NCBI GenBank assembly: GCA_041651235.1
Contig: JBAZJQ010000001.1
Span: 31,673-95,672, forward strand
DNA from: Candidatus Pacearchaeota archaeon
GTDB lineage: Archaea > Nanobdellota > Nanobdellia > Pacearchaeales > GW2011-AR1
Direction of reading: 5' to 3'
Length of the DNA: 64,000 nt
The notes under the pieces are model-generated. The model saw only the letters and a program-made list of their open reading frames with translations. It did not search any database and had not been told where the DNA came from. Each line of letters starts with the position of its first letter. Within the stretch, counting starts at the first letter, position 1. The translations under genes and the position numbers were made by a program. Positions 2,704 through 25,199 of the stretch are shown one piece after another.

Positions 2704-3339
2704 ATGAATAAAAAGGAGAAAACTTTCTTAGGAAAGACAAGTTTTATCAAAGAATACCTTTTTCTGAAAAAAGGTAATCCAAAATCAACTTTCTTATTTG
2801 AAAATAAAAAAGGGCAGTTTTATCTGGTTGCAGCAATATTAATTGTTATGATACTTTTTGGTATTTTTAGTGTTAGAAGTTATGCTGTTGTTAATTCAGA
2901 ACCAAGAAAAGTGCAAGATATAAGTAGCGAATTAAAAGAAGAAACAGCAAGAATAGTTGATTATGGTATTTATTCTGCATCAAATATAACTCAGTTATAT
3001 GAAAACTTTACAGATAAGGATTATTCTGAATATTTTTTAAAGAAAACAGAACAAACTAATGTTGTTTTTATTTATGGAAATAAAACAAATCTTTATAGTA
3101 TTCAGTATCTTCCTACAGAAACAGGAACTGTTTCTGCTACTCTTGGGGGAGCCTCAACTGTATGGAATGAAGAAACAACTTATATTAATAAAACAAAAAT
3201 AATTCCTATTGCTGGAAGTACTGTACTTACTGTAAATCTTTTTGATAAAGAATTTAAATTTGATTTAAGAGAAAATCAAATGTTTTACTTTATTGTTGCT
3301 CAACAGCAAGAAGGGGAAATTTATGCTGAAAGAAATTAA
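2704..3339 (+). CDS. hypothetical membrane protein, possible prepilin-like (KKGQ|FYLVAAILIVMILFGIF)
   Basis: 211-aa ORF. Class-III-signal-like segment about 30 aa from the annotated start, so the true start is uncertain. First gene of the pilus-like locus. Confidence 0.45.
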   Translation: MNKKEKTFLGKTSFIKEYLFLKKGNPKSTFLFENKKGQFYLVAAILIVMILFGIFSVRSYAVVNSEPRKVQDISSELKEETARIVDYGIYSASNITQLYENFTDKDYSEYFLKKTEQTNVVFIYGNKTNLYSIQYLPTETGTVSATLGGASTVWNEETTYINKTKIIPIAGSTVLTVNLFDKEFKFDLRENQMFYFIVAQQQEGEIYAERN

Positions 3340-3449
3340 AAAGAATTAAATAGGAGAAAATACTGATAAGAAAATATATTAATAATCCATTAAGACACAA
3401 GCTAAGCTGAGGATATGATTAAGATATTTAAAATAAAATAGAAAATAAT

Positions 3450-5126
3450 ATGAAAAAGAGGATGAATAAATTGGGGCTGAGTTTAATTGTTTCATATGTA
3501 CTTTTAGTTTCAATTGCAGTTGCACTTGGTGCAATTTCTTATGTATTTTTAAAAGAATATCCCAGTATAATAAAAGAACCTGTTGATTGCAAAGATGATA
3601 CTTCTATAACATTAGTAGGATACACAAATTCCAGCACAGAATTAAAACTAATAATAAGGAATAATGGTTTGTTTAATGTTAATGGATTTATGATTGCTGT
3701 TGGAAATATAACTGGAAGAGTTCCTATTGAAAAATTATGGAGTGCAGATGGTTCACCTACAAATCTAACTAAAGGAAGTTACAATTTTAAAAATCCTCTA
3801 AGACCTGAAGAATCGATTCAGACTATTTTTGTTAAAGAAGCTGGTTATGATGTAAAGAAGATACAACTGCAACCATTTATTATTGGAGAAAATGGAGACC
3901 AGATATTATGTTCAAAAAAAGTTATAACTCAAAAAGTTGATGCTTCACTAACTCCAATAGAAACCTGCGGGGATAATATTAAAGACCCTGGAGAAGATTG
4001 TGATGGAAGTGATTTTGGTGCGAGTTATGATGGAACTTGTGTGAGTTATAGTTCATCTGTATATTCTTCTGGGGATTTAAAATGCACTTTTGGTTGTTCA
4101 ATTAGCACTGTTAATTGTGTTTTAATTGGAGCTCCAGAAACATGCTCAGATGGAGTTCAAAATCAGGGAGAAATAGGAATAGATTGTGGAGGGCCTTGTA
4201 CTGCTTGCACGACTGCTCCAACATGTTCAGATGGAATTCAAAATCAGGGAGAAACAGGAATAGATTGTGGAGGGCCTTGTACTGCTTGTTCTCCAGCTGG
4301 CGCTTATATAAAATTCAAGACAAGTAATTTAAATTATCCAGATACTTCACAGATATACTATAATAATGGAACTTGTGGAATTAATTTAACAGAATATAGC
4401 CGTACTAATACTTGGTATAATGATGCTGGTGTAAGTTGCGATAATCAACTTGGTGCAGGAAATTTCCTTTTCAGTATACCTGGAATAGATATGTTCACTT
4501 ATTCAGGTAAACCTCTTTGCTCAAATTTAAGATTATATAAAGACGGGGATTTCCTTAATGTTTGTGGGAATAATGGAAACTATATTGGATACAAGAGATT
4601 TACAAAAACAGCGAATAAAATATCTCGTTTTTCAACAGATTCTAGCAAGGAAATAAGTTGCACAGCAACATGCTCAGATGGAATTCAAAATCAGTATGAA
4701 ACAGGTATTGATTGCGGAGGGCCTTGTACTGCTTGTGCTTATGTTAAATTCAGGACAAATGATTTAACTTATGATACTTCAGGATCTGCAATAGCATATA
4801 CTACCTCTACAGAGTGCAATGGTTTAACTAATTTAGAAAAATTTATTGGGGGAGCTAAAATTAATGACGCAGGAACTTGTTCGAGTACTTTTAGTTCTGC
4901 GGAGGGATATGTATTAGTATTTTCAAATATTCCCGGAGATATATCTCCTTATTCTGGGACAACTTATTTATATAAAATAAATAGTCCTTCATATGGGACC
5001 TATGCTTGGGTTTGCACTTATGATGCTTCACTAGGTAGACATATCTATAAAAAATATACTAAAGATGCTGGGACAATCTCCACAGATAGGTTATCAATAG
5101 ACCCAACTAAAGAAGTATCCTGTTAA
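3450..5126 (+). CDS. secreted Cys-rich repeat protein with N-terminal hydrophobic anchor or pilin-like signal
   Basis: 558 aa. N-terminus MKKRMNKLGLSLIVSYVLLVSIAVALGAI. Three copies of the 22-aa module CSDG(I/V)QNQGE(T/I)GIDCGGPCTAC, encoded by near-identical 69-bp DNA repeats. Confidence 0.6.
   Translation: MKKRMNKLGLSLIVSYVLLVSIAVALGAISYVFLKEYPSIIKEPVDCKDDTSITLVGYTNSSTELKLIIRNNGLFNVNGFMIAVGNITGRVPIEKLWSADGSPTNLTKGSYNFKNPLRPEESIQTIFVKEAGYDVKKIQLQPFIIGENGDQILCSKKVITQKVDASLTPIETCGDNIKDPGEDCDGSDFGASYDGTCVSYSSSVYSSGDLKCTFGCSISTVNCVLIGAPETCSDGVQNQGEIGIDCGGPCTACTTAPTCSDGIQNQGETGIDCGGPCTACSPAGAYIKFKTSNLNYPDTSQIYYNNGTCGINLTEYSRTNTWYNDAGVSCDNQLGAGNFLFSIPGIDMFTYSGKPLCSNLRLYKDGDFLNVCGNNGNYIGYKRFTKTANKISRFSTDSSKEISCTATCSDGIQNQYETGIDCGGPCTACAYVKFRTNDLTYDTSGSAIAYTTSTECNGLTNLEKFIGGAKINDAGTCSSTFSSAEGYVLVFSNIPGDISPYSGTTYLYKINSPSYGTYAWVCTYDASLGRHIYKKYTKDAGTISTDRLSIDPTKEVSC
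4139..4289 (+). repeat. two adjacent near-identical 69-bp intragenic repeats (Cys-rich module)
   Basis: 4139-4207 and 4221-4289 differ at only a few positions. A third copy lies at 4688-4756. The frame-shifted ORF 4115..4327 is an artefact of this repeat. Confidence 0.85.
4688..4756 (+). repeat. third copy of the 69-bp intragenic repeat
   Basis: acatgctcagatggaattcaaaatcag...ggagggccttgtactgcttg matches the copies at 4139 and 4221. Confidence 0.8.
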
Positions 5127-5219
5127 TCAAAAATCTTTATATAGGGGAGTTGGTTTATTATCTGAAGATAATAAAAGAGCACTAAAATAGTAAAATAATA
5201 TTGAGACAGCAAAAAAGAG

Positions 5220-5684
5220 ATGGAAATGAGAAAGATTAAAACAAAAAGAGCAGTGAGTCCTGTTGTTACAACAGTTCTGTTAATTGCTATGGTGATTATT
5301 ATTGCTATTATAGTTCTCTTGTGGTCAAGGGGTTTTCTTAAAGAAAAAATATTAAAACAAATTGGAGGAGCTAACAAACCAATTGCAAGTGTTTGCAATG
5401 AAGTAAGTTTAAGAACATTTGCAAATGATGATGCAACATTTGGATTTACAAATATAGGAAATGTCCCTATTTACGGCATTCAATTGAAATTAACTGAATC
5501 TGGTTCAGGAAGTACATACACAGAAGGCATGGTTAGAAAAGTAAATCCGGGATTATCAACAACAATTGAAACTTATCCTTACACAGATTATACTAATATT
5601 GAAATAGTTCCTATTTTGCTTGGAAAAACAAAAGGAGGAGTATTAAGAGAATACAATTGTTCTGAAAATGGATTTAGGGTTTAA
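5220..5684 (+). CDS. archaeal type IV pilin (class III signal peptide)
   Basis: MEMRKIKTKRAVSPVVTTVLLIAMVIIIAIIV matches the archaeal pilin N-terminal domain pattern (KxAVSPVIATVLLI...). Confidence 0.7.
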   Translation: MEMRKIKTKRAVSPVVTTVLLIAMVIIIAIIVLLWSRGFLKEKILKQIGGANKPIASVCNEVSLRTFANDDATFGFTNIGNVPIYGIQLKLTESGSGSTYTEGMVRKVNPGLSTTIETYPYTDYTNIEIVPILLGKTKGGVLREYNCSENGFRV

Positions 5685-6186
5685 AAGAAAAAAGTTTGGT
5701 AAAGGTGCACAGTCAGATGTAATATCAACTGTTTTGTTGATTTTATTGGCAATAGTTGCTATTGGAATTTTATCTGCATTTATTGTTCCTTTTATAAAAG
5801 ACAGACTTTCTTCTGGAAATTGTCTGGATTATGTAGGTAAATTTGAAATTGCAAATAATCCTGCATATACCTGCTATAATCTTTCTGGTTTGAATAATAT
5901 GAGTTTGAAAATAGATGTTGGGGATATTCAGAATTATAAGGGATTTGCAGTTGAATTTGATTTAGGAGCTACATCAGAAACTTTTAAAATATATAATGGA
6001 ACAACAGACCCTGTAAAGATGTATAACGGTTCCAGTTCAATTAAACTCCCTGATAATAATGGAGCTGAAACTTATTTAATTGCAGTAAATCCAAAACCTG
6101 AATCAATTAGTTTGTATATTATCCTTGAAAGCGGGGAAGTATGCGACACTGCAGATTCTTTAGAGTTTATTTCAGATTGTCCATAA
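5668..6186 (+). CDS. archaeal type IV pilin-like protein
   Basis: KGAQ|SDVISTVLLILLAIVAIGIL class-III-like signal. Overlaps the previous gene by 17 nt. Confidence 0.6.
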   Translation: MDLGFKRKKFGKGAQSDVISTVLLILLAIVAIGILSAFIVPFIKDRLSSGNCLDYVGKFEIANNPAYTCYNLSGLNNMSLKIDVGDIQNYKGFAVEFDLGATSETFKIYNGTTDPVKMYNGSSSIKLPDNNGAETYLIAVNPKPESISLYIILESGEVCDTADSLEFISDCP

Positions 6187-6188
6187 AC

Positions 6189-6725
6189 ATGAAAAATATT
6201 AAATCACAAATTTGGGTTGAAAATGCAATTTATATCCTTATTGCAGTAATTATAATGGCTGGGCTGTTATCAATAGCTTATCCTCAAATAGATAAATTAA
6301 AAGACAAGAATATTATGAAGCAGACACTTAGTGCCATGAATGTTCTCGATGATAAAATAATAAAACTTCAGCAAGCAGGAGAGGGAAATGTTAGAACAGT
6401 TGATTTCAAAATATCTTCGGGGCAATTAGAGATTGATGCTCCTAATAATACTCTAAGATACATACTAGAAGATACTAGATTGGAATTATCTGAAATTGGT
6501 CAGGAAATAGAATATGAAAATAAGATATTTATTAAAACAGAAAGATTTGGAGATAATTTCAAGATAACTGCAAGAAAAGATTATTCAAATATCCTGAACA
6601 TAACTTACAAGGGACAAGAAGCAGTAAAAACACTTTATGCTGGAACAACTCCTTACTCACTTGTACTTGAAAATAAAGGTTCAGATATGGCTGCTGGAAA
6701 AACAAACATAGATATAAGTGCATAA
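6189..6725 (+). CDS. type IV pilin-like protein (start revised to ATG 6189)
   Basis: MKNIKS|QIWVENAIYILIAVIIMAGLL with Glu at +5 of the putative mature end. Track ORF 6141 begins with an implausible 16-aa Arg/Phe leader. Confidence 0.55.
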   Translation: MKNIKSQIWVENAIYILIAVIIMAGLLSIAYPQIDKLKDKNIMKQTLSAMNVLDDKIIKLQQAGEGNVRTVDFKISSGQLEIDAPNNTLRYILEDTRLELSEIGQEIEYENKIFIKTERFGDNFKITARKDYSNILNITYKGQEAVKTLYAGTTPYSLVLENKGSDMAAGKTNIDISA

Positions 6726-6806
6726 AATTTGAATAATTTATTAAGGCATAACAAAGATTTTTTAAACTACAAAACATGTTATATTATACAAACTAAAAGA
6801 GGAAAA

Positions 6807-8405
6807 ATGAGCTTAATAGAAATTAATTTAAATCCCAGTATCCCTGCATTGCCTAAAATAGAGGATAAAACAAAGATAAATATAAGGTATGCTCTTATTC
6901 CTCCTTATGCAAGTGTTCATATTTATTGGGATAAAAAAGAAGGAGAATTAATTTATCATCTTGAGGAGCCTATTTTAAATAGTTATGAAAAACAATTATT
7001 AGAAACCCTTGAAAGAACCTTAGGAGAGATGGTTAATGTTAATGTTTTAATTGAAAAAACAGTTGAGTCTATGATAGCTTATATCGACCAAACTTCAAGA
7101 TTATTAATTGAAGAATTAGCATTAAAAGTAGATACTACATCTTATAAAAAAATATTTTATTATTTGTTTAGGGATTTTGTTGGATTAAATAAAATTGAGC
7201 CTTTAATGAAAGATTATTTTATTGAAGATATAGAATGTAATGGAATTGATACTCCTGTTTACATTGTTCACAGGCTATACAGGAATATGAAGACAAATAT
7301 TGTTTATAATTCACTTGATGATCTTTCTAGTTTTGTTGAAAAAATAGCACAGAGATGCGGGAAATATGTTTCTTATGCAAATCCTTTGCTTGATGGAAGT
7401 TTGCCTGATGGAAGCAGAGTTAATGCAACATATACTAAAGATATTACCAGCAGAGGCCCTACTTTTACTATAAGACGTTTTACTAAAACTCCCTGGACTC
7501 CAATTCAATTATTGAATATGAAAACACTAAGCCCAGAAATGCTTGCTTATTTCTGGATATTATTAGATTATAAATCAAATATTTTAATTACTGGAGGAAC
7601 TGCTTCTGGTAAAACAACTTTGCTTAATGCAATTGCATTTTTTATTCCTCCTGAATCAAGAGTAGTTTCAATTGAAGACACAAGAGAATTAAATCTCCCA
7701 AGAGAAAACTGGCTACCGAGTGTTGCAAGAAGTGCACTTGGAACAGGAAGTGTTGGAGAAGTTGATTTATTCAGTTTATTAAAAAATTCATTTAGACAGA
7801 ATCCAGATTATGTAATTGTTGGAGAAGTTAGAGGAAAGGAAGCTTTTGTATTATTTCAGGGAATGGCCTCTGGACACTCTTCTATCAGCACTATGCACGC
7901 AGATTCAGTTGATACATTAGTTAAAAGGTTAGAGACTCCTCCAATTGAATTATCCCCTACTTTGCTGAATACTTTGGATTGTGTTGCTGTAATGACTCAT
8001 GCAGTTGTTAATAAACAAGAAACAAGAAAATTAAGAGAAGTTATTGAAATTGTTAATGTTGACAATGCAGGAACTGCACTAACAAATACTCCTTTTATAT
8101 GGAATGCAAGAGAAGATGTATTTTATTTTAAAAAAGACAGCAGAGTTTTTCAAAAAATATCCAAAAAATTTGGATTAACATTTGAAGAATTAAACAGAGA
8201 ATTTGACTTAAGAGCGAGATTATTATATGAAATGCAAAAAAGAGGAATTTCTGATTTCAACAAAACTCAGAAAATAATTAATGAATATCATAAAAATCCT
8301 CAGGTAGTTCTTCAGACATTTGGCATAATGGGCAGTCCAGCTGGCAGCCAGCAAACAGAAAATTCTGGTGAGAGTATTCAAGACAGTATGAAGGATTTTA
8401 TGTGA
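6807..8405 (+). CDS. type IV pilus/archaellum assembly ATPase (FlaI/TadA/VirB11 family)
   Basis: Walker A GGTASGKTTLLNAIAFF. SIEDTRELNLP and VIVGEVRGKEAFVLFQGMASGH motifs. Start placed at ATG 6807 (MSLIEINL), in frame with track ORF 6729. Confidence 0.85.
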   Translation: MSLIEINLNPSIPALPKIEDKTKINIRYALIPPYASVHIYWDKKEGELIYHLEEPILNSYEKQLLETLERTLGEMVNVNVLIEKTVESMIAYIDQTSRLLIEELALKVDTTSYKKIFYYLFRDFVGLNKIEPLMKDYFIEDIECNGIDTPVYIVHRLYRNMKTNIVYNSLDDLSSFVEKIAQRCGKYVSYANPLLDGSLPDGSRVNATYTKDITSRGPTFTIRRFTKTPWTPIQLLNMKTLSPEMLAYFWILLDYKSNILITGGTASGKTTLLNAIAFFIPPESRVVSIEDTRELNLPRENWLPSVARSALGTGSVGEVDLFSLLKNSFRQNPDYVIVGEVRGKEAFVLFQGMASGHSSISTMHADSVDTLVKRLETPPIELSPTLLNTLDCVAVMTHAVVNKQETRKLREVIEIVNVDNAGTALTNTPFIWNAREDVFYFKKDSRVFQKISKKFGLTFEELNREFDLRARLLYEMQKRGISDFNKTQKIINEYHKNPQVVLQTFGIMGSPAGSQQTENSGESIQDSMKDFM

Positions 8406-8417
8406 ATCTTTGATGTT

Positions 8418-8516
8418 TATAATCTATTAAGACATAAGATTTGCGGATGAGAAGATTAAAATGGTTATTATTAATTTGATGTTAGTAGATTCTTTGATTG
8501 TTTTATTAAGATATAA
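8418..8516. repeat. intergenic repeat family copy A (MITE-like or sRNA candidate)
   Basis: tataatctattaagacataag-a-tttgcggatgagaagattaaaatgg ... ttttattaagatat. Imperfect terminal inverted repeats. Lies between convergent genes. Confidence 0.6.
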
Positions 8517-8536
8517 ACATTTTAATTTATTATTAA

Positions 8537-8803
8537 TCACAATTCAAATTCTTCGATAAAATTAACTATTGTTTTGTATTTTTCTATGAATTTAAATCCT
8601 TTTTCAGTTAGAGAAACAAATCTCTGGTTTTTTGCTGATATTTCTTTAATAAACCCTCTGCTTAATAAATCTAAATAATATTCTTTAAATCTACTTGAAG
8701 ATAAATTAGATTTTCTTAATAAGGGAGTTGATTTTATATAATTATGATTATCCTGAATTATTTTTAAAATATCCCTCATTATTTCTAGTTTTCCTCTCTT
8801 CAT
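8537..8803 (-). CDS. small winged-helix DNA-binding protein
   Basis: 88 aa. EIMRDILKII...LLRKSNLSSSRFKEYYLDLLSRGFIKE...LTEKGFKFIEKY looks like a wHTH transcription regulator. Confidence 0.5.
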   Translation of the reverse strand: MKRGKLEIMRDILKIIQDNHNYIKSTPLLRKSNLSSSRFKEYYLDLLSRGFIKEISAKNQRFVSLTEKGFKFIEKYKTIVNFIEEFEL

Positions 8804-8804
8804 T

Positions 8805-9512
8805 TTAGTTGCCTGTTTTTTTAATTACTTTAAATAGAATTAGCAAGAAAATTCCTGTTGATGCAAGATAAATAAACAGCTGGAAATTATTGAAAACATC
8901 TGGAATTAATATGTCCAGGATGTTTAATATCCAAAAAATAAATAGTAACAGATAAATCATGTATAAATTATTTTTCTTATGTTTGTTATTGTGAGCAAAA
9001 TAAAGCATTATTGAAATGGATATAACTAATATTAGATTTAATAAAAGATGGATTATAGGGTTTCTCGTTATAATACTTATCACCGCAATTAAAACAGCTA
9101 ATGCATGGAAACTATAAATTTTATTTGAATTATTTGATTTCCACATAACACTATATAACAAATAAAATATAGACATTGCACTGAAATACATAAATAATAA
9201 CAGAGTTAGATTTCCAAACTGATTAAAAACTTTTGGTGAAAAATCAATTATCCGGTTTATCCCAAAATACAATAAAATAACCTTGATAAATGACCTGAAG
9301 AAATAAGCTAATGCAAAAAACAAGAAACTTAATCTAAAATACTTTAATCCTTTGTAAGAACTTAATTCGTAAAGTTCTTTTGTTCCAAAATAAATAATTA
9401 AGCTGCATGCAATTATAATAAAAGAATATAAAATTTCTGTTCCAAACCCAGCTACAAGAAATTTATCTGCTAGTTGATTCCCTAGAATAACTTTTCCTGA
9501 AATTGGTGGCAT
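8805..9512 (-). CDS. polytopic integral membrane protein, function unknown
   Basis: 235 aa with 6-7 hydrophobic segments. No A24 (prepilin peptidase) Asp motifs seen. Confidence 0.5.
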   Translation of the reverse strand: MPPISGKVILGNQLADKFLVAGFGTEILYSFIIIACSLIIYFGTKELYELSSYKGLKYFRLSFLFFALAYFFRSFIKVILLYFGINRIIDFSPKVFNQFGNLTLLLFMYFSAMSIFYLLYSVMWKSNNSNKIYSFHALAVLIAVISIITRNPIIHLLLNLILVISISIMLYFAHNNKHKKNNLYMIYLLLFIFWILNILDILIPDVFNNFQLFIYLASTGIFLLILFKVIKKTGN

Positions 9513-9641
9513 TTTAGTTAATTATACATATTCTTTTTATATTTAAGTCTTTATAAGACCTATGGATTTTTAATCCATCTTCTTTAAATAAGAAATTTTT
9601 CTAATAAAATTATGAAATTCATATCAATGAAAGGAGGTAAA

Positions 9642-10034
9642 ATGGAAAGAAAATATGTACTAACAATAATGGCTGTGTCCCTTGTTGCTATTCTTGGGGT
9701 TGGAGCTGTTTCTGCATTTGGTTTTGGAAATGGATTCTTTAATTCTGCAACTGATGAAGAAAAAGCTGCTATGAAAGAAAACCAAGATGCAATGAGAACT
9801 GCTATTGAAAATAATGATTATGCGACATGGAAAACTCTAATGGAAGGACAAATTGCACAAATGCAATCTAAGATAACTGAAGAGAATTTCAATGATATAG
9901 TTGCAAATCATGCAAAAATGTCTGAGATGCAGTCAGAAATGAATACTTTAAGACAAAAGTATGGCATGGAAAGCGAAAATCCTGGCATGAGAGGCGCGGG
10001 AAAAGGTGAAGGGAAATGTCCTTTTGCTGAATAA
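9642..10034 (+). CDS. small secreted protein (signal peptide, C-terminal Gly-rich tail with Cys)
   Basis: Strong RBS AAGGAGGT at 9631-9638 then ATG 9642. MERKYVLTIMAVSLVAILGVGAVSA signal peptide. Track start 9612 is less likely. Confidence 0.55.
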   Translation: MERKYVLTIMAVSLVAILGVGAVSAFGFGNGFFNSATDEEKAAMKENQDAMRTAIENNDYATWKTLMEGQIAQMQSKITEENFNDIVANHAKMSEMQSEMNTLRQKYGMESENPGMRGAGKGEGKCPFAE

Positions 10035-10106
10035 AATTATTTTTTTTAATTCTTAAATGGATTTGAAGTCCATTTGGCTTATAAATAAAGATATCTAAAT
10101 TGGATT

Positions 10107-10427
10107 ATGAAAAATAAAATTGGGATTATCTTGATAGTGATTATTATTGCTGTATCCCTTGTTGGAGGATATTTCTTAATAAATAATAAACATAATCGCA
10201 CTGATTTTCCAGGTATACAAAACAATGAATTTGACAAAAAGGGATTTAATCAAACATTTAATGAAGACACAAAAAGTGAAATAATTTCTTTTTTTGAAAA
10301 TAATGAAGCAGAGAGTATAAAAGATTATTGTAATAAAAATCCTCCTTATTGCATGTATTATTGCAGAGAAATAGATTCTTCAAATGAAATCTGTTCGCAG
10401 ATGCAACCCCCGGACCCAAGAAAATGA
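10107..10427 (+). CDS. small membrane-anchored or secreted Cys-containing protein
   Basis: TATA-like cttataaataaa at 10078-10089. N-terminal TM KIGIILIVIIIAVSLVGGYFLI. 4-nt overlap with the ABC ATPase gene. Confidence 0.5.
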   Translation: MKNKIGIILIVIIIAVSLVGGYFLINNKHNRTDFPGIQNNEFDKKGFNQTFNEDTKSEIISFFENNEAESIKDYCNKNPPYCMYYCREIDSSNEICSQMQPPDPRK

Positions 10428-11116
10428 AACAGGATACGATTATTAGAATAGAAAATGTTTGGAAAAAATATGAGATGGGGAAAGCAGAACCTCTTGTGGT
10501 TTTAAAAGAGATAAATCTAGACATTAAAAAAGGAGAATTTGTTGCAATAACCGGCCCTTCTGGAAGTGGAAAAAGTACAATGGTGAATATTGTTGGTGCT
10601 TTAGACCGCCCCTCCTGGGGAAATGTGTTTTTAGAAAATAAAAATATAGAAGAAATGGATGAATCTTCTCTTGCTTTTCTAAGAGGAAAAACAATTGGAT
10701 TTATTTTTCAGCAATTTAATTTACTTCCAACTCTAACTGCACTTCAGAATGTTATGCTCCCTATGGAAATGACTGGTGAAGATGAATTAGTCGCAAAACA
10801 AAGAGCAACAAAATTATTAGAATCTTTGGGGCTGGGAGATCGATTAGATCATAAACCCAATGAATTATCTGGGGGACAACAGCAAAGAGTTGCTATTGCA
10901 AGAGCCTTATCTAATAATCCCAAATTAGTATTAGCAGATGAACCTACAGGAAATCTTGACAGCACAACAGGGAAATTTGTTATGGATTATTTAGGAAAAT
11001 TAAATCAAGAAGGAAAAACGATTGTTCTTATCACCCATGATTTAAATCTTGTGAAATATGCAAAAAAAATTGTGTATATTAAAGATGGTAAAATTGAAAA
11101 AGAGGCAAAAAATTAG
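10424..11116 (+). CDS. ABC transporter ATP-binding protein (MacB/LolD/FtsE-like)
   Basis: Walker A GPSGSGKST. Signature LSGGQQQRVAIARAL. Walker B LVLADEPTGNLD. Confidence 0.9.
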   Translation: MKQDTIIRIENVWKKYEMGKAEPLVVLKEINLDIKKGEFVAITGPSGSGKSTMVNIVGALDRPSWGNVFLENKNIEEMDESSLAFLRGKTIGFIFQQFNLLPTLTALQNVMLPMEMTGEDELVAKQRATKLLESLGLGDRLDHKPNELSGGQQQRVAIARALSNNPKLVLADEPTGNLDSTTGKFVMDYLGKLNQEGKTIVLITHDLNLVKYAKKIVYIKDGKIEKEAKN

Positions 11117-11165
11117 TGGATCTCGGGTCCATTTTATTTATAAACAAATTTTGAATGATTAAAAA

Positions 11166-12251
11166 ATGAAAAGAGAAAAAAAACATATAATAAACCTTTT
11201 TACTATTATATTTTTAATTGTAATTTTTATGAATTATGTTTCTGCTTCATATTCAGGTACTCCTTGCAGTTTAACGGTTAATATGATTAATCAAGACCCT
11301 TATCCGGCTGTCCCTAATGAATACGTAGATGTTGTTTTCCAGGTAAGCGGAGTTTCAAATACAAACTGTGAAGGAACTATCTTTGAATTAATACCTACCT
11401 ATCCTTTTTCACTTGATGGTAGCGACGCAGTTAAAGTTCTTGAAGGAAGCACCTGGACTTCTAATTCAAAAAAAGACTGGATGATTCCCTATAAATTAAG
11501 AATTGATAAAGATGCATTAGATGGAGATAATGAAATTGAAATTTATTATACTGAAGGAGATAATACTCCTAAAACTCAAATAACTAAAATATTTAATATC
11601 ACAATACAGGACTCAAGAACAAGTTTTGATGCAGTAATTCAAGAGACAAGTGGAAGTGATGTTTCGATAGCTATTGCAAATGTAGGAAAATATGCTGCTA
11701 ATTCAGTTATTGTAAAAATCCCTGAACAAGATTCATTTACAACAAGCGGAACTAATGGGCAAATGGTTGGAAATTTAGAAAGTGGGGATTATACTTTAGT
11801 TGGATTTACAATTACTAAAAAAATGGGTATGCCTAATGATTTTAAAAATAAAACTTCTGATACAAATATACAGACAAATTCTGATACATTAAAATTTGAT
11901 ATTTATTATACAGATAATATTGGAGAAAGAAGAGTAGTCAATATGGAGTTACCCTTGCAAATTGCAGGCAATTCTTCGATGGCTCAATTTAATGGAAATT
12001 TTCCTGGAAGAAAGACAAGTTCCTGGTGGTCTAATTGGTACATCTTACTGATAATTTTAATTTGTGTTATTATATTTTTCTTTATATACAAGAGATACCC
12101 TAGACAAACAAAAGACTTCTTAAATAAACTAAAAAGTAAATTAAAAAAAACATCAGAAAAAGAAGAAGAAGCAATTATTAGAGATTTCAATAAAGTATCT
12201 GCAAAAATACCTGATTGGGTTAAGAATTCAAAGACAAAGGAGAAAAAATAA
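11166..12251 (+). CDS. secreted protein with C-terminal TM anchor, ABC-transporter associated
   Basis: 361 aa. N-terminal signal/TM. C-terminal WWSNWYILLIILICVIIFFFIY followed by a Lys-rich tail. Sits between the ATPase and the FtsX permease. Confidence 0.5.
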   Translation: MKREKKHIINLFTIIFLIVIFMNYVSASYSGTPCSLTVNMINQDPYPAVPNEYVDVVFQVSGVSNTNCEGTIFELIPTYPFSLDGSDAVKVLEGSTWTSNSKKDWMIPYKLRIDKDALDGDNEIEIYYTEGDNTPKTQITKIFNITIQDSRTSFDAVIQETSGSDVSIAIANVGKYAANSVIVKIPEQDSFTTSGTNGQMVGNLESGDYTLVGFTITKKMGMPNDFKNKTSDTNIQTNSDTLKFDIYYTDNIGERRVVNMELPLQIAGNSSMAQFNGNFPGRKTSSWWSNWYILLIILICVIIFFFIYKRYPRQTKDFLNKLKSKLKKTSEKEEEAIIRDFNKVSAKIPDWVKNSKTKEKK

Positions 12252-12266
12252 ATAGTCTCTTTTAAA

Positions 12267-13541
12267 ATGAGATTAAAAAAATCTTTTCAACTGGCCCTTA
12301 ATATTTTTGTCCACAGCAAATTGAGAAGCTGGTTAACTATTATTGGAATAATCATTGGAATTGCTGCAGTAGTTAGTATTATTTCTATGAGCCTTGGTGC
12401 TCAGCAGCAATTAGAAGAAAGACTTGGAAGTCTTGGAGCAGATATTCTTACAGTCAGCCCAGGAATGTCAAGAGCACAGGGAATTGGATTTGGAGGAGGA
12501 CCTATGGAGGAAAGAAGTTCATCTAGTTCTACTTCTAGTGACTCAAAAAATTTAACTGCAAAAGATGTTATGGTTTTGAAAAGTATTTCTAATGTAAAAT
12601 ATGTTATGGGAAGTGTATCTGGAAGAGCAGATGTAACTTATTCAAGTAAAACTGCAAAAGACCAAAGCATTAGCGGGGTTGATACTTCTATATGGAAGGA
12701 AATTACTACTGAAACACTAAGTTCTGGGAGATTTTTAACAGAGGGGGATATGTATTCAGTAGTGATAGGAGAAAATTTAGCTGAATCTACTTTTGATTCT
12801 GAAATATCCATAAACACTAAAATAATTATTGAAGGCAAGTCTTTTAATGTTGTTGGAATTCTTAGTGGAGGCAGAACAATCTACATGCCTATAGGTGCTG
12901 CTAGAATAGTCTTAGAAGATGTTGGAAATAATGAATTTAATTCTATCTCTGTAAAAATAGAAGATGTAAGTATCTCTGAAGATACAGTAACTGCGATTAC
13001 TAAAAAATTAATGATGGCCCGGGGAATAGTTTCTGAAAAAAAAGTTGATTTCTCGGTTACAAATCCCTCATCAATGCAGGAAACTATGGAAGAAACAATG
13101 AATACTATGACTCTTTTCTTGGGAGCAATAGCAGCAATTTCTTTATTAGTTGGAGCAATTGGAATTGCAAATACTATGTTCACTTCGGTTTTGGAAAAAA
13201 CAAAAGAGATAGGAATAATGAAAGCCATAGGTGCACAAAATAAAGATATTTTAGCTATTTTTCTTTTAAATTCAGCGTTAATAGGATTAATCGGGGGACT
13301 GGGAGGGGTAATTTTAGGAATAATTTCTTCAACTACTATAAACAGTTTTGCAGGAATAGGAAGTTCTGTTAGTGGTCCTGGAAGAGGAATGTTAGGGGCT
13401 CTTGGGAGCTCTTCATCAATTAGTTTTACACTTATTTTTGGGTCCTTGTTCTTTGCAGTTATAATTGGGATGATTGCCGGAGCAATTCCTGCTTATAGAG
13501 CATCTAAATTAAATCCAGTTGATGCTCTTAGATATGAATAA
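12267..13541 (+). CDS. ABC transporter permease, FtsX/MacB family
   Basis: N-terminal TM. Large extracytoplasmic domain. C-terminal FtsX-like four-helix region ending ...AYRASKLNPVDALRYE. Confidence 0.85.
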   Translation: MRLKKSFQLALNIFVHSKLRSWLTIIGIIIGIAAVVSIISMSLGAQQQLEERLGSLGADILTVSPGMSRAQGIGFGGGPMEERSSSSSTSSDSKNLTAKDVMVLKSISNVKYVMGSVSGRADVTYSSKTAKDQSISGVDTSIWKEITTETLSSGRFLTEGDMYSVVIGENLAESTFDSEISINTKIIIEGKSFNVVGILSGGRTIYMPIGAARIVLEDVGNNEFNSISVKIEDVSISEDTVTAITKKLMMARGIVSEKKVDFSVTNPSSMQETMEETMNTMTLFLGAIAAISLLVGAIGIANTMFTSVLEKTKEIGIMKAIGAQNKDILAIFLLNSALIGLIGGLGGVILGIISSTTINSFAGIGSSVSGPGRGMLGALGSSSSISFTLIFGSLFFAVIIGMIAGAIPAYRASKLNPVDALRYE

Positions 13542-13585
13542 AAACAAATATAAACTCCTTTTTAGATATAATATAAAAGAGGAAA

Positions 13586-13750
13586 ATGGGATTACAGGAC
13601 ATTCAAATTTTAGCGCAGTTATCTGATAATTTAGATATAACCCTGCGAAGATTAGAAGAAGCTTATGAGAAAAAGGATAGTGAAAATTTTTTTCTTGCTA
13701 AAAAGGAGATTCTAGAGACACAGAAAAAAATCTCAGAGGTATTAAAATGA
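13586..13750 (+). CDS. 54-aa micro-ORF translationally coupled (ATGA overlap) to the TadC-like gene
   Basis: AAGAGGA RBS then ATG 13586. Translation MGLQDIQILAQLSDNLDITLRRLEEAYEKKDSENFFLAKKEILETQKKISEVLK. Stop TGA at 13748-13750 overlaps the ATG at 13747. Not in the ORF track. Confidence 0.45.
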   Translation: MGLQDIQILAQLSDNLDITLRRLEEAYEKKDSENFFLAKKEILETQKKISEVLK

Positions 13751-15117
13751 GTCTCGAAGCATTAAAAGAAAATATTGCACATTCTAAGGAGATAATTCGG
13801 GAAATATATATCTTCTCAAATCAGTTAGAAATAATACATGCTTTAGAGAGCAAAGGCAGAAGCGCTATTGATGAAAATGAGAAAAGACTTTTAGTAGATG
13901 CTATTAGCGGGTTATGGGGGCAATTAAGAATATTAAATGGGTCAATTCCCAGTTTAGTGGAGAATATTGGATTTTACAAACAACTTGAAACAACTTCTGC
14001 AAATGTTTCTGAAAGAACTGAAAAAATCCCTAAAAAGTTAATCCAGATTAAATATAAACCTGGGGAACAGCAATCGGATATTTCTTTAACTATTAGTGAA
14101 AAAGACAGAATGGCTTTCCTGGAAAATTTAAGCAAGAGCAATCTTTCTATAAATCAATTAAAAAAGAAATATGGTGTTGAAAAACCAACAGGATCAACTT
14201 TTGGGAAACCAAATTTTTATGCTAAAATATCTAATAAACTTTTTCGAGAATTTTCTAATAAGTTATTGCAAAAAGGAAAGTTAGATAAAATAAACAAAGA
14301 TTTAAGAAAAATGAATTCTCCTTTTTTAGTTACTACTTACACTTCAATGATATTTTTTACTATGATTATTACTTTAGTTGCAAGTATCTTTATTTTTATT
14401 TTATTATTATTTTACAACATTGGATTAACATTTCCATTTTTAAGTCCCTATGAGGGAGATATCTTGACCAGAATAATCCAAACTCTCTGGATAATTATTG
14501 TAATCCCCTCGACAACAGGAATATTAATGTATTTATATCCTTCAAGTGAAGCTAAAAATATTGGCGGGAAAATTGATCAAGAACTTCCTTTTATTACAAT
14601 TCATATGTCTGCTATATCTACTTCAGGAGTAGAGCCTCAGAATATATTTAAAATTATCCTTAAGAGCAAAGAATATAAGTATTCAAATATGGAATTTAGA
14701 AAATTAATTAATCTTGTTAATTTCCAAGGATATGACTTAGTTACTGCATTAAAGAAAAGTGCTAAATCTTCTCCTTCTGTTAAACTAAGGGAATTATTAA
14801 ATGGATTTGCTACTGCAATTACTTCTGGAGGAAATTTACATGAGTTTTTAGACAAACATGCAGATACGCTGCTTTTTGATTATAAATTAGAAAGAGAAAA
14901 GTATACAAAAACTTCAGAAACATTTATGGATATCTATATCAGTGTTGTAATTGCTGCTCCAATGATCTTACTAATGCTGTTTATAATCATGGGAAGCACA
15001 GGAATGAACTGGATGGGGATTAGTTCTTCAATTATGGGATTTTTAATTATACTTATGATTGCTTTCCTTAATGCTGCTTTCCTGATGTTCTTAAAATTAA
15101 AACAACCGGTATTTTAA
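13747..15117 (+). CDS. type II secretion system F-domain membrane protein (TadC/FlaJ-like platform)
   Basis: 456 aa. The C-terminal half carries the T2SSF-like domain (..ISTSGVEPQNIFKII...LLNGFATAITSGGNLHEFL...) with flanking TM helices. Confidence 0.75.
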   Translation: MSLEALKENIAHSKEIIREIYIFSNQLEIIHALESKGRSAIDENEKRLLVDAISGLWGQLRILNGSIPSLVENIGFYKQLETTSANVSERTEKIPKKLIQIKYKPGEQQSDISLTISEKDRMAFLENLSKSNLSINQLKKKYGVEKPTGSTFGKPNFYAKISNKLFREFSNKLLQKGKLDKINKDLRKMNSPFLVTTYTSMIFFTMIITLVASIFIFILLLFYNIGLTFPFLSPYEGDILTRIIQTLWIIIVIPSTTGILMYLYPSSEAKNIGGKIDQELPFITIHMSAISTSGVEPQNIFKIILKSKEYKYSNMEFRKLINLVNFQGYDLVTALKKSAKSSPSVKLRELLNGFATAITSGGNLHEFLDKHADTLLFDYKLEREKYTKTSETFMDIYISVVIAAPMILLMLFIIMGSTGMNWMGISSSIMGFLIILMIAFLNAAFLMFLKLKQPVF

Positions 15118-15118
15118 A

Positions 15119-16000
15119 ATGAAAACTGATAAAATAATAAGATTTGTAAAAATAAATAAACAAAAAATAATAGCGATAGTTATTGCTTTAATTACCGCGA
15201 TACTTTCTTATATATTCCTAAATGGAAGCGACATATTTTATTTTATCCTTGGAATAGCTTTTGTAATTGCTTCTTTGCCTTTTATTATCTCTTTAATTTT
15301 AGCAGGTGATGCAGAAAGAAAAAAAGATGAGATGTTTCTAGAGTTTGCAAGAAACTTAGTTGAGAGTGTTAAAGCAGGAACTCCAATAAGCAAGAGCATC
15401 TTAAACATAAGAAACAAGGACTTTGGTCCATTAAATCCTTATGTGGATAAATTAGCAAATCAAATTTCATTAGGAATACCAGTAAAAGCTGCATTAGACA
15501 CTTTTGCAAGAGATATTGGAAGCCAGACAATAACCAGAGCAGTAACTATTATAAGTGAATCTGAAAAGGCAGGAGGAAGAATAGAAGATATTTTGGACTC
15601 TGTTGCTAAATCTGTTTCTCAAGTTGAAATACTTAAAAAAGAAAGAAGAGCAACAATGTATAATCTTGTTGTTCAGGGATATATTATATTCATGATATTT
15701 ATTGTAATAATCTTAGTATTGCAATTTAAGGTTCTTCCAATTGCTGCTCAATTAGGAAGTGCAGATGTAGAGGGAGCTAATATTCCGGTTAGTTTGGGGG
15801 GATTTGGAGGAGGGAATGTTGCAAGTGTAGAAGACTTAACGAGACCTTTTATTTATTTATTATTAGTCCAAGGATTTTTCGCGGGATTAGTAATTGGAAA
15901 ACTATCTGAAGGAAAAATAAAAGCAGGACTAAAACATTCATTTGTCTTGATAATCTTAGCTATATTAATTTCAACAGGAGCTAAAGCATTTTTATCATAA
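15119..16000 (+). CDS. second T2SSF-domain membrane protein (TadB/FlaJ-like)
   Basis: 293 aa. DTFARDIGSQTITRAVTIISESEKAGGRIEDILDSVA matches a GspF/TadB-type domain, plus TM helices. 1-nt gap to the previous gene. Confidence 0.7.
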   Translation: MKTDKIIRFVKINKQKIIAIVIALITAILSYIFLNGSDIFYFILGIAFVIASLPFIISLILAGDAERKKDEMFLEFARNLVESVKAGTPISKSILNIRNKDFGPLNPYVDKLANQISLGIPVKAALDTFARDIGSQTITRAVTIISESEKAGGRIEDILDSVAKSVSQVEILKKERRATMYNLVVQGYIIFMIFIVIILVLQFKVLPIAAQLGSADVEGANIPVSLGGFGGGNVASVEDLTRPFIYLLLVQGFFAGLVIGKLSEGKIKAGLKHSFVLIILAILISTGAKAFLS

Positions 16001-16097
16001 AATGAAAAACTTTTTTTATATTTTTTAAGTGATGATAAAATTAAGAAAAGTTTTTTAAAGTAGAAGATAATGATTATGTTATATAAAAGGAAATGAT

Positions 16098-16742
16098 ATG
16101 AAGAATAAACTTAATAAATTAATAGAGGATAAGGGTGCACAGGCGCATGTAGAAATGATTTTATCAATTACATTGTTTGTTGGATTTTTGGTTTTTATTT
16201 TTATAATATTGAATCCATTTGGTGATTCAAAAAATGCCTCCTTTATCGGAAATGTTGAAAGAGCGGTTATGACAAACATAACTGAAAATTTTGGCAAATT
16301 AAGTATTATAATGGATGTTGCTAACACTTGTTATAGCAGTATTCCTCCAGGATATCCTGGAAACTATCAAGGAAAAAAGATTAATGACCGATTATATCAT
16401 GTTTATTTTTCAGATTCCTTTTCAAATAATCTGGGCTGTACTGGCCCCGATGGAACTTATAGCATTGGAACTTTTTCAAATGAAGAAATTGTTAGTTATG
16501 ATAATTTACAAAAATTAAAAACAAATTATGAAAATGAGTATAATAGATTAAGAACAAGTTTAGGCTTGGGAAATGAATTTACATTTACTATTAGAACATT
16601 GGAGGGATTAGATATTGGATTAAATCCAATTGTTAAAAATCCTCCAAAGGGAGTTAATGTTGAAGCAAAAGATATTCCAATAAGAGTTATTAACTCCAGT
16701 GGAGATATATCTGAATTAATATTAAATATAAAAGCGTGGTAG
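16098..16742 (+). CDS. type IV pilin-like protein
   Basis: MKNKLNKLIEDKGAQ|AHVEMILSITLFVGFLVFIFIIL class-III signal-like. Confidence 0.6.
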   Translation: MKNKLNKLIEDKGAQAHVEMILSITLFVGFLVFIFIILNPFGDSKNASFIGNVERAVMTNITENFGKLSIIMDVANTCYSSIPPGYPGNYQGKKINDRLYHVYFSDSFSNNLGCTGPDGTYSIGTFSNEEIVSYDNLQKLKTNYENEYNRLRTSLGLGNEFTFTIRTLEGLDIGLNPIVKNPPKGVNVEAKDIPIRVINSSGDISELILNIKAW

Positions 16743-16771
16743 GTGTATAAATAAAAGAATAAACAATGAAG

Positions 16772-16822
16772 CTACTGATATTAAGCTTAATCAACAGAAG
16801 TTAAGATGTTTAAATTTACATA
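16772..16822. repeat. partial copy of intergenic repeat (GATTAAGCTTAATC palindrome module)
   Basis: ctgatattaagcttaatcaacagaagttaagatgtttaaattta is near-identical to 59416-59459. Confidence 0.55.
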
Positions 16823-16845
16823 TTACCAAAATACAACAAGACAAA

Positions 16846-17253
16846 ATGGCAAAAAGATTTGATAGAAAGGCGTGGATAAAAATTGTAGAGGCATTTTTAG
16901 CTATTTTAATCATAAGCACAGCCTTGTTAGTTATTTTATCTGAACAGCCTAAAAAAATAGATAACAGCGAGGATATTTATTTATTGCAAAGACAGATTCT
17001 AGAAATTATAAGCAAAAATAATAGTTTAAGAGAAGATGTTTTGGGTTTAGATTATGCTCCCATTAATAACACCATAAGAAAAATGCTTTCACCTGCATTT
17101 GATTTTGACACTAAGATATGTGATTTAAAAGAAATATGCAATCCTTCAAATCTTCCAACAGATAAAGATGTTTATTCAACTGAAATTGTAATAACCGCTA
17201 CATTAACACAATATCAACCCCAAAAATTAAGATTCTTTGTCTGGGGAAAATAA
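16846..17253 (+). CDS. pilin-like small protein
   Basis: MAKRFDRKA|WIKIVEAFLAILIISTALLVIL. Hydrophobic pilin-like N-terminus with Glu at +6. Confidence 0.5.
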   Translation: MAKRFDRKAWIKIVEAFLAILIISTALLVILSEQPKKIDNSEDIYLLQRQILEIISKNNSLREDVLGLDYAPINNTIRKMLSPAFDFDTKICDLKEICNPSNLPTDKDVYSTEIVITATLTQYQPQKLRFFVWGK

Positions 17254-17364: not shown

Positions 17365-17898
17365 TTATTTACAACAAACCATATATAAAACATTTTTAGA
17401 GCCAGAGGCATCTCCATCGTCTGCTAAACATCCATTATCATACATTGATGCATCTAAGTCATCAGTGCCTACAGCTAGATGAACACACCCCGTTCTCATC
17501 CATCCATTTTTACAGTTCATACCAAATGAAGGGCCCACATCAGGATCTGAATAATCATTTACTTGATCGATAATATTAGTTATTGCTCCAGGATTTGAAC
17601 CAGTATAACTAACCATCGTTGCAGTTCCGTCTTCAACTCTTTTTAGAGTAACACAGCTTAAACTACTTGCAGAACATTCCCACCCATTTCCTGCAGAATT
17701 AACTTTTAAATAAGTTCCTGCTGTACAACCAACTCCAGAGGGAGCAGAAATCGCACTCAAATCATGACCTGGATTTTCAGCAACTCCCGGAGACCAAGAA
17801 ATTACAAACCCCACACTAATCAAAAAAATCATTAAAGCTCCTAATAGAAATAAATTTCTTTTTTCAAGTTTTAAATTGATATTAATGCTTTTTGCCAT
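17365..17898 (-). CDS. secreted Cys-rich protein, compositionally atypical (about 40% GC)
   Basis: 177 aa. N-terminal TM/signal. Ten Cys, ending ...LYMVCCK. Markedly higher GC than its neighbours. Confidence 0.55.
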   Translation of the reverse strand: MAKSININLKLEKRNLFLLGALMIFLISVGFVISWSPGVAENPGHDLSAISAPSGVGCTAGTYLKVNSAGNGWECSASSLSCVTLKRVEDGTATMVSYTGSNPGAITNIIDQVNDYSDPDVGPSFGMNCKNGWMRTGCVHLAVGTDDLDASMYDNGCLADDGDASGSKNVLYMVCCK

Positions 17899-17948: not shown

Positions 17949-18398
17949 TTGTTATTTATGAAGAATATGGGAAATTTTGAAAATAAAGATAAGTTCAAAT
18001 TCTTAGAACATACAGCAGATATTAAGTTTCAGGCATTTGGAGAAACACTTGAAAAAGCATTTGAAAATTCTGCTTATGCATTAAAAGATATTATAAGCAA
18101 AGATAAAACTAAGAATGAAATAATAAAGAGGATTAAAATTAATGGGAAGGATCTTGAAAGTTTGCTATTGAATTTTTTAGAAGAATTTTTGATTTTATTT
18201 GACATGGAAGGTTTTTTACTTTCAGAAATCTCAAAGATTAAAATAGATAAGAATAATTTTGTCTTAACTGCAGAAATTTTTGGAGATTATGCAGGAAAAT
18301 ATGAAATTAGAAATCATGTTAAAGCAATTACCTATAATGAAATGTTTGTTAAAAAGCATAAAAATACTTATATAATCCAAGTTGTAGTTGATGTGTAA
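17949..18398 (+). CDS. archease (RtcB activator)
   Basis: FLEHTADIKFQAFGETLEKAFENSA ... TAEIFGD ... KAITYNEMFV match conserved archease motifs. Confidence 0.8.
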   Translation: MLFMKNMGNFENKDKFKFLEHTADIKFQAFGETLEKAFENSAYALKDIISKDKTKNEIIKRIKINGKDLESLLLNFLEEFLILFDMEGFLLSEISKIKIDKNNFVLTAEIFGDYAGKYEIRNHVKAITYNEMFVKKHKNTYIIQVVVDV

Positions 18399-18670
18399 TG
18401 TTCAGAAAATTGATTTTGTCAATAAGAAATTTATATTCTTTTTTAAAAGAAGTAGACAATCTATGCCAAAACGTTATAGAGAAAAGAGAATATATTAAAC
18501 CAAAACGCTTTTATTCTATGACCAGAAGAGGAAAATTAGCAGAATTAGACTATAATATTGAAGTCCCTGATGGAGGATTTGTACACAGAGGGAAATATGA
18601 TGGTAAAAATTATTTTACATTCACTGAAAATAGAGTTATCGGATTAGAAAGCAGATGTGAGAATAGATAA
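18398..18670 (+). CDS. hypothetical small protein
   Basis: 90-aa ORF between archease and the nucleotidyltransferase. Confidence 0.4.
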   Translation: MFRKLILSIRNLYSFLKEVDNLCQNVIEKREYIKPKRFYSMTRRGKLAELDYNIEVPDGGFVHRGKYDGKNYFTFTENRVIGLESRCENR

Positions 18671-18700
18671 AATTAAATAATGAATTTTTCTTGATAAAAT

Positions 18701-21357: not shown

Positions 21358-21397
21358 TTTTTTAAGTATTCGGAATATATTTGATTTTCTAACTTAT

Positions 21398-21522: not shown

Positions 21523-21608
21523 CAAAATAAAAATTAACTGAGGTTTTATTAGGATATAAATATTTTTTATTTCTGAAATATTTATAAAGATGTTTTCTAT
21601 GTATATTT

Positions 21609-25125: not shown

Positions 25126-25199
25126 TTCATAAAAATAAAAAACATTTAAAAACTAAAATATATATTAGATAATATACATACTAAAATAAAAAGAGGAAA

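Follow-up and report, generated by a model that had tools for sequence, protein, structure and literature searches.

A probable type IV pilus locus of two operons and a two-gene platform in a Candidatus Pacearchaeota archaeon, interrupted by an apparently unrelated ABC exporter cassette

Introduction

Several described filament systems bear on the locus presented here, namely the euryarchaeal clade 2 or 'system 2' pili (PilA1-6 and PilB3-PilC3 of Haloferax volcanii, afGspE of Archaeoglobus fulgidus), the system 1 or Epd pili of Methanococcus maripaludis (clade 1 of Makarova et al. 2016), the bacterial Tad pilus (CpaF/TadA, TadB, TadC, Flp and TadE/F) and the archaellum (FlaB, FlaF/G/H, FlaI, FlaJ and FlaK). 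According to Makarova et al. (2016), two tadC-like genes per locus are found in clade 1 and in many clade 2 systems. A 2026 preprint lists for DPANN archaea system 1, whose platform is encoded by two genes, and for some of them subsystem 4A, which has two platform proteins. Filament loci of DPANN with two platform genes have thus been reported before. Pili are the leading candidates for the structures with which DPANN archaea grip their hosts. The literature on Pacearchaeota and Woesearchaeota yielded almost nothing specific on pilins or prepilin peptidases. Here we describe a predicted type IV pilus locus (positions 2704-17253) in a 64,000-nt stretch of a Candidatus Pacearchaeota genome (assembly GCA_041651235.1, contig JBAZJQ010000001.1, positions 31,673 to 95,672). 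This whole stretch is referred to below as the window, and all positions are counted from its first nucleotide. The window has a G+C content of about 29% and carries archaeal housekeeping genes for the exosome, the proteasome, Mre11/Rad50 and RtcB.

Results and Discussion

Conserved organization of the pilus locus

The locus (Table 1) very probably encodes the type IV filament (pilus) machinery that is standard in Pacearchaeota and Woesearchaeota, arranged in two adjacent operons and probably serving attachment, with an ATP-binding cassette (ABC) exporter module that is unrelated to it. Operon 1 comprises five prepilin genes and a gene for an ATPase of the FlaI/GspE type, while operon 2 comprises a gene for a 54-aa protein (orf54), a platform encoded in two genes (FlaJ/TadC halves) and two further prepilin genes. 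The pilin genes are designated below by their first position.

Gene order supports this reading. A search with platform protein 1 returned more than 2000 homologues, the 120 best of which are 57-65% identical and nearly all full length, and a scan with one genome per species gave 61 related loci from Pacearchaeota, Woesearchaeota and Nanoarchaeota. All window proteins were then compared with the related loci by tblastn. The order 2704, 3450 (N-terminal domain), 5220, 5668, 6189, ATPase, orf54, platform 1, platform 2, 16098, 16846 proved colinear in 58 of 60 species-representative loci from the same three groups. On the upstream side, 30 loci extended far enough to be scored. The ATPase and 5220 were each present in 28 of them, 6189 in 27, 5668 in 25, the 3450 N-terminal domain in 22 and 2704 in 21. 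On the downstream side, platform 2 was present in 39 of the 40 loci with enough downstream DNA, 16846 in 33 and 16098 in 27.

An earlier note on this DNA, made from the sequence alone, had already read the region as an archaeal type IV filament locus in a DPANN-like genome, and both the family matches and the source organism agree with it. The elements that it named, i.e. a FlaI/TadA-type ATPase, a platform split between two T2SSF-domain proteins, a MacB-like exporter (ATPase, secreted protein and FtsX permease) lying inside the locus and a 54-aa open reading frame (ORF) coupled to the TadC-like gene, are all present, and the synteny comparison that it proposed places the pilus genes among them in the conserved order given above.

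Table 1. Predicted features of the pilus locus, of the cassette inserted into it and of two further genes in the window. An arrow marks the predicted cleavage point of class III signals.
Feature	Position	Strand	Evidence
Pilin-like family 1, 211 aa, KKG↓QFYLVAAIL	2704..3339	+	Motif scan; orthologues in the same position
Putative modular pilin, 558 aa, NKLG↓LSLIVSYVLL	3450..5126	+	Residues 1-164 form a conserved pilin domain
PilA-type pilin, 152-154 aa, KRA↓VSPVVTTVLLIAMVI	5220..5684	+	TIGR02537, 32.3 bits (cutoff 20)
Pilin-like, 172 aa, KG↓AQSDVISTVLLIL	5668..6186	+	Motif scan and orthologues
Pilin-like, 178 aa, KS↓QIWVEN, Glu at +5	6189..6725	+	Orthologue motif
Assembly ATPase, FlaI/GspE (VirB11) superfamily, 532 aa	6807..8405	+	T2SSE PF00437, E 8e-30
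Insertion between the two pilus operons, 5.2 kb, seven genes	8406..13585	.	ATPase-orf54 gap compared with relatives
Winged-helix regulator (HTH_45 / Sso10a family), gene one of the cassette	8537..8803	-	PF14947, E 5.5e-13
Polytopic membrane protein, 235 aa	8805..9512	-	50-58% identical in L071-L073
Secreted 140-aa protein, faint CpxP/ZraP-like matches	9612..10034	+	Within insertion; absent from the cassette of relatives
Small membrane-anchored protein, 106 aa	10107..10427	+	Homologues directly 5' of the ABC ATPase gene in L071-L073
ABC ATPase, LolD/MacB type	10424..11116	+	ABC_tran, E 1e-34; LolD and MacB models
Extracytoplasmic partner, 361 aa, N-terminal signal and C-terminal anchor	11166..12251	+	404 homologues
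MacB-type permease, MacB_PCD and FtsX	12267..13541	+	E 1.5e-28 and 3e-20
Promoter-like element CAAATATAAACTCC	13545..13558	+	28-41 nt upstream of orf54; counterpart of CTTAATAAACTT in relatives
orf54, conserved 54-aa protein, coiled-coil character	13586..13750	+	43 orthologues
Platform protein 1, 456 aa	13747..15117	+	T2SSF PF00482, E 5e-14; FlaJ model positions 42-248 of 555
Platform protein 2, 293 aa	15119..16000	+	T2SSF PF00482, E 1e-14; FlaJ model positions 264-544 of 555
Pilin-like, 214 aa, DKG↓AQAHVEMIL, Glu near +5	16098..16742	+	Orthologue motif
Pilin-like, 135 aa, RKA↓WIKIVEAFLAIL	16846..17253	+	Motif scan and orthologues
Presenilin/signal peptide peptidase (A22) protease	33225-34151		PF06550, E 4e-10, 40.2 bits (cutoff 23.9), positions 2-280 of 283
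Large protein with class III signal, 825 aa, KRG↓QSQIITT	35047..37524	+	Motif scan; TIGR02537, 19.5 bits (cutoff 20)

Assembly ATPase, platform and orf54

Among structures in the PDB, the ATPase matches A. fulgidus afGspE best (2OAP, 373 bits), aligning with it nearly end to end, followed by FlaI (266 bits) and CpaF (150 bits). It also shows a weak PilB3_C match, and against the NCBIfam FlaI model it reaches 381 bits, under the cutoff of 550. Its orthologues share 57-82% identity over the aligned segments. In four relatives (L004, L007, L061 and L065) the ATPase gene is split by an intein (Intein_splicing and LAGLIDADG domains), and the product in L004 (6320-9352) is 1010 aa long.

As the two platform proteins have one T2SSF domain each and cover separate parts of the FlaJ model (Table 1), they are predicted to be the two halves of one FlaJ platform encoded by separate genes. 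Ahead of the FlaJ N-terminal half, platform protein 1 carries an additional conserved cytoplasmic N-domain of about 190 aa; its structure model, of moderate confidence (predicted local distance difference test score, pLDDT, 71.8), has a helical hairpin (3-71), a low-confidence linker and a transmembrane helix (195-222).

The 43 orthologues of the orf54 product are 53-69 aa long and share the consensus LQxLAQLxDNME...KLEKAY. The orf54 gene is translationally coupled to the first platform gene: here its stop codon overlaps the platform 1 ATG by four bases (ATGA), and in the orthologues a 4-nt overlap was found in 14 and a gap of 1-2 nt in 13. A comparison of the upstream regions of about 40 loci brought out the promoter-like element listed in Table 1, which suggests a separate promoter for operon 2.

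Prepilin-like proteins

A scan of all ORFs for class III signals (K/R-G/A/S followed by a hydrophobic stretch) found ten in the 64 kb, five of them in the pilus locus. When orthologues from about 60 genomes were included, seven prepilin families could be recognized in the locus, each keeping its own cleavage motif across about 30-45 orthologues. Class III signals are thus concentrated in the locus and conserved among relatives. The count of five or six prepilins in the earlier note was too low, as there are seven families; the large protein at 35047 comes in addition.

The candidate for the major pilin is 5220. Its family motif, KK[GA]↓VSPV..TVLL, is kept in 45 orthologues, and distant homologues match PF07790. 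Its AlphaFold model (pLDDT 91.9) consists of a long N-terminal helix (12-37) and a beta-sandwich, with the Pyrobaculum archaeal type IV pilin 8FK7 as the top full-length Foldseek match.

The 3450 product, which has a weak match to the UpsA model (E 3e-4), appears to be a modular pilin that carries a variable adhesin module. More than 30 relatives have, at the corresponding place, a gene that matches its first 164 aa, with the family motif K[KR][GA]↓[VL]S.M.SYVLL, of which the window copy is a variant (Table 1). The orthologues are usually 153-200 aa long, and long extensions occur in six of 32. The C-terminal extension found here is Cys-rich and lineage-specific, with three CSDG.QNQ.E.GIDCGGPCTAC repeats, and gave no match in Pfam.

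The remaining families are defined mainly by their orthologues. The motif of 2704 is KRG↓QFY in orthologues, and the leader of the window protein is unusually long (37 residues), no closer start codon being available; that of 5668 is K.[AS]↓QSE. In 6189 it is K[GAS]↓Q[VI]W[VI]ET.IYTLIGL, in 16098 K[AS]↓QGH[VI]E.I.SF and in 16846 K[GA]↓W[LI]RI[VI]EA. The signal of 16098 was recognized from orthologues, having fallen under the strict hydrophobicity cutoff of the class III scan. A Glu residue occupies position +5 in families 6189 and 16098 and position +6 in family 16846; Glu at such positions resembles bacterial minor pilins, and both 6189 and 16098 are probable minor pilins.

Outside the core, the protein at 35047 is a probable pilus-associated adhesin or cargo, the N-terminal 150 aa of which resemble a gene inserted at the ATPase/orf54 junction of a related locus (L006). 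Another protein of the window (47183-48307, minus strand) is transglutaminase-like (PF01841, E 3.5e-6) and has a class III-like N-terminus, MKKRA↓GTLLFISIMIL. Surface peptidases belonging to the transglutaminase family have been linked to some archaeal type IV pili (Makarova et al. 2016).

The ABC exporter cassette

The distance from the ATPase stop to the orf54 start is 5180 nt, the largest seen; in most relatives for which both genes lie within range, it is 11-340 nt. None of the 60 related pilus loci contains the cassette genes that fill it here. On the other hand, a six-gene cassette of the same layout (HTH_45 regulator and a membrane protein of about 230 aa on one strand; small protein, ABC ATPase, 361-aa protein and MacB permease on the other) is intact in the three Pacearchaeota/Woesearchaeota contigs examined (L071-L073), with identities of 34-79%, and copies of the regulator, 64% identical, lead it there. 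It is adjacent to RadA in one case, to ribosomal protein S10 and seryl-tRNA synthetase in another and to ribosomal proteins and IF-2 in the third, and no pilus genes were found near it in these three relatives. Its occurrence outside any pilus context, together with its absence from the 60 loci, argues that the cassette is an independent module that entered the pilus locus only in this lineage and is not a pilus component. A 54-aa gene beside the cassette in L072 was considered as a relative of orf54 and proved unrelated on comparison.

The 361-aa protein has no family match in Pfam or NCBIfam. In each of the three contexts examined, its gene has the ABC ATPase gene on one side and the MacB gene on the other, and those of its homologues that are named come mostly from Pacearchaeota, Woesearchaeota or Nanoarchaeia. 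No convincing direct or inverted repeats flank the cassette, and an integrase and a tRNA gene are also absent.

The same junction between the ATPase gene and orf54 has received other inserts in related genomes, i.e. a class III protein of 628 or 375 aa (adhesins, in L059 and L006), an integrase-bearing element (in L003) and unrelated genes. Inserts at this point would be harmless because operon 2 appears to have its own promoter. The L003 region (5102-9518), located upstream of orf54 and with no ATPase gene within 10 kb upstream, contains a tyrosine integrase gene and a run of small ORFs and looks like an integrated mobile element or virus.

The prepilin peptidase

The search for a prepilin peptidase covered the window, 10 kb upstream of it, the approximately 1.6 kb of contig left downstream and 73 related loci (1.1 Mb). 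A scan of polytopic ORFs in the window and 66 loci for the GxGD motif found nothing besides a presenilin homologue, a phmmer --max search with the exact FlaK sequence (PDB 3S0X) gave no match among all ORFs of at least 80 aa in the 1.1 Mb, and no A24 peptidase was found in the precomputed Pfam listings of the two flanks. The A24 peptidase gene is therefore unlinked to the locus, as the earlier note had observed for the locus itself, which does not imply its absence from the genome. The polytopic protein at 8805-9512 was considered as a hidden peptidase and ruled out, as it lacks a GxGD motif, has no Pfam or NCBIfam match and belongs to the ABC cassette.

The presenilin homologue (33225-34151), correctly set apart from PibD in the earlier note, contains the motifs SLYDIW, LGGGDIV and PAMPF, i.e. 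both YD and GxGD, and scores 47 bits against the NCBIfam PSH equivalog, under the cutoff of 125. No presenilin gene was seen near any of the 60 related pilus loci.

Archaeal A24 peptidases are often encoded apart from pilus loci. Three genome surveys (PMC11606122, PMC8407392 and PMC5994134) report flaI, flaJ and flaK in Woesearchaeota, and an A24 peptidase accompanies the secretion ATPase in most archaea that have the latter, two nanoarchaea being exceptions (Makarova et al. 2016). That the cleavage motifs are strictly conserved speaks for processing taking place. The suggestion that signal processing is unexplained here was overstated, since a 64-kb window says little about a gene that is often unlinked and that has been reported in Woesearchaeota.

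Proposed function and alternative explanations

Based on these observations, we suggest that a hexamer of the ATPase would dock on the heterodimeric platform, maybe via the helical N-domain of platform protein 1 and the 54-aa protein, and power polymerization of the PilA-type pilin 5220. The six remaining pilins would be minor or priming subunits, with the 3450 protein bearing its variable Cys-rich module as an adhesin, and the most likely task of the filament would be attachment, either to a host or to a surface. The ABC module would play no role in the pilus.

Several points weigh against this interpretation. We infer, rather than observe, which pilin is the major one and what orf54 and the N-domain do; the adhesive function, although probable, is proposed by analogy and from the DPANN lifestyle; and one core component, the class III signal peptidase, is assumed rather than shown. 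Moreover, only 44 nt lie between the end of the ABC permease gene and orf54, which have the same orientation, and read-through co-transcription is possible.

The alternatives concern both the filament itself and its partners. An archaellum, i.e. a motility organelle, would agree with the common annotation of Woesearchaeota genes as flaB, flaI and flaJ, with the fla genes listed for this group in published papers and with FlaI and FlaJ as the best NCBIfam matches of the machinery. The Joint Genome Institute (JGI) labels on homologues of 5220 (P0245, P0254, P0257 and others) likewise read 'flagellin-like' or 'FlaG/FlaF family archaellin'. We nevertheless regard this as extremely improbable, since the scores stay below the model cutoffs (381 against 550 bits for FlaI, 60-85 against 400-570 bits for FlaJ), the ATPase is nearer to the non-archaellar afGspE than to FlaI, and the pilins are merely 135-214 aa long and fall into seven distinct families. 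Profile searches for the FlaB, FlaF, FlaG and FlaH signatures, which the earlier note had named as pointing to an archaellum, were made, and no Pfam or NCBIfam match to an archaellin domain, FlaH, FlaF/G, FlaX or FlaCDE was found among the locus proteins. By its sequence matches the locus is a type IV filament and not an archaellum, and the highly expressed 'flaB' and the archaella published for Woesearchaeota may refer to this pilus. A short pseudopilus or display platform (bindosome-like or similar to the type II secretion system), or a DNA-uptake device, which would present or secrete class III proteins such as 35047 instead of forming a long adhesive pilus, is a more serious candidate and still an unlikely one. 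Large proteins with class III signals do occur outside the core (35047 here and the inserts in L059 and L006), three pilin families have Glu at +5 or +6 like bacterial minor pilins and pseudopilins, and 'functionalised' filament machineries have been proposed for archaea. However, the conserved genes of the locus include one for a PilA-type pilin of standard pilin fold, no gene for a substrate-binding domain or for DNA uptake was seen there, and 'flaB', which we take to stand for pilins of the 5220 type, is among the most highly expressed Woesearchaeota genes, which fits an abundant filament subunit.

As regards partners, the earlier note had proposed that pilus and MacB-type exporter form one combined adhesin-export system, in which delivery or maturation of the Cys-rich pilins would fall to the exporter. 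The cassette indeed lies physically within the locus, with the exporter on the same strand as operon 2 and close to orf54; yet it is missing from every one of the 60 related loci, recurs in three relatives as a conserved unit, complete with a divergent regulator of its own, amid unrelated genes, and leaves the conserved promoter-like element immediately 5' of orf54 in place, at a junction that carries unrelated inserts in other genomes. Synteny largely refutes the combined system, and we consider it very improbable. Hardly any more weight can be given to the idea that the genome has no A24 prepilin peptidase and that its prepilins are matured by another enzyme, e.g. the presenilin-type GxGD protease. 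It is favored by the lack of an A24-like gene in all the DNA searched, by the two nanoarchaea with a secretion ATPase and no such peptidase (Makarova et al. 2016) and by the presence of the protease gene in the window. However, the sequence covered here, about 74 kb, is a fraction of a source contig of at least 648 kb, A24 genes are commonly unlinked in archaea, a flaK gene has been reported for most of the Woesearchaeota genomes examined in the literature, the presenilin gene lies away from all 60 related pilus loci, and presenilin homologues are widespread among archaea that also have PibD. If Pacearchaeota of this group did lack A24 while keeping seven pilin families with strictly conserved cleavage motifs, another enzyme, most plausibly the presenilin-type protease, would mature the prepilins, and this would be a new route of class III signal processing.

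Genomic neighbourhood

An archease and RtcB gene pair (tRNA ligase pair; window 17958-20447) is found 3' of the pilus locus in about half of the related genomes; this neighbourhood is conserved, with no obvious functional link to the pilus locus. Large secreted proteins that are Cys-rich or PKD- or cadherin-like densely flank the locus, with 289, 885, 301 and 770 aa downstream (window 20488-29049) and, upstream of the window (L067 1234-9146), 1543 and 835 aa. The region around the locus resembles a cell-surface or adhesion island. Another protein, small, secreted and Cys-rich (177 aa; 17365-17898, minus strand), has a weak match to the PCSK9 C-terminal domain, and related copies occur near the pilus locus in L024 and L045.

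Significance

The locus reveals no new kind of system and is no longer unusual, because the exporter is explained by the relatives, and the peptidase by the literature and the small fraction of the genome seen. What it provides is a parts list for the Pacearchaeota/Woesearchaeota pilus, consisting of eleven genes, among them those for seven pilin families, for a platform in two parts and for a small coupled protein, in which a variable adhesin slot and an insertion-prone junction were identified. It also shows that pilus genes of this sort are easily mislabelled as archaella and that a tempting link between a pilus and an ABC exporter was false. What remains of interest is the conserved architecture in its details and the slight possibility that A24 is truly absent.

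Comparison with known systems

The exporter cassette resembles the MacB/LolCDE (type VII) ABC exporters in its LolD/MacB-like ATPase and its permease with MacB_PCD and FtsX domains. It differs from them in that the partner is a 361-aa anchored protein and not a MacA-type adaptor, and in the addition of a divergent winged helix-turn-helix regulator and a polytopic membrane protein.

With the archaellum the locus shares a homologous ATPase and platform and class III signals, but the scores are below the cutoffs, archaellins and FlaF/G/H are lacking and the platform is split. The bacterial Tad pilus likewise has two one-domain T2SSF platform proteins, a related ATPase (CpaF, 150 bits) and minor pilins with Glu at +5. 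On the other hand, no short Flp-type pilin, TadZ, secretin or TadV peptidase is present here, and the platform halves fit archaeal FlaJ better than the bacterial models.

System 1, or Epd pili, is similar in its two platform genes, its many pilin families and its reported occurrence in DPANN, and Gln at +1 combined with Glu at +5 in several of our pilins may resemble Epd-type (DUF361) signals. However, no EppA-type peptidase (nine transmembrane segments) lies near this or the 60 related loci, and PF04021 (DUF361) gave no match at E <= 0.1. Moreover, clade 1 has been described as evolving fast, whereas the ATPase studied here is not strongly divergent from FlaI and afGspE, a similarity that argues weakly against clade 1 membership.

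The clade 2 (system 2) pili of Euryarchaeota share with the locus an afGspE-like ATPase (373 bits), the PilA-type N-terminus of 5220 (K/R-G/A↓VSPV..TVLL, TIGR02537) and an expected function in adhesion. They have been described with a single platform gene, unlike the two found here, and the MinD/FleN gene is absent from this locus. Judged by ATPase similarity and pilin type, the locus looks closest to euryarchaeal clade 2, while the architecture of its platform resembles system 1, subsystem 4A and the bacterial Tad pilus.

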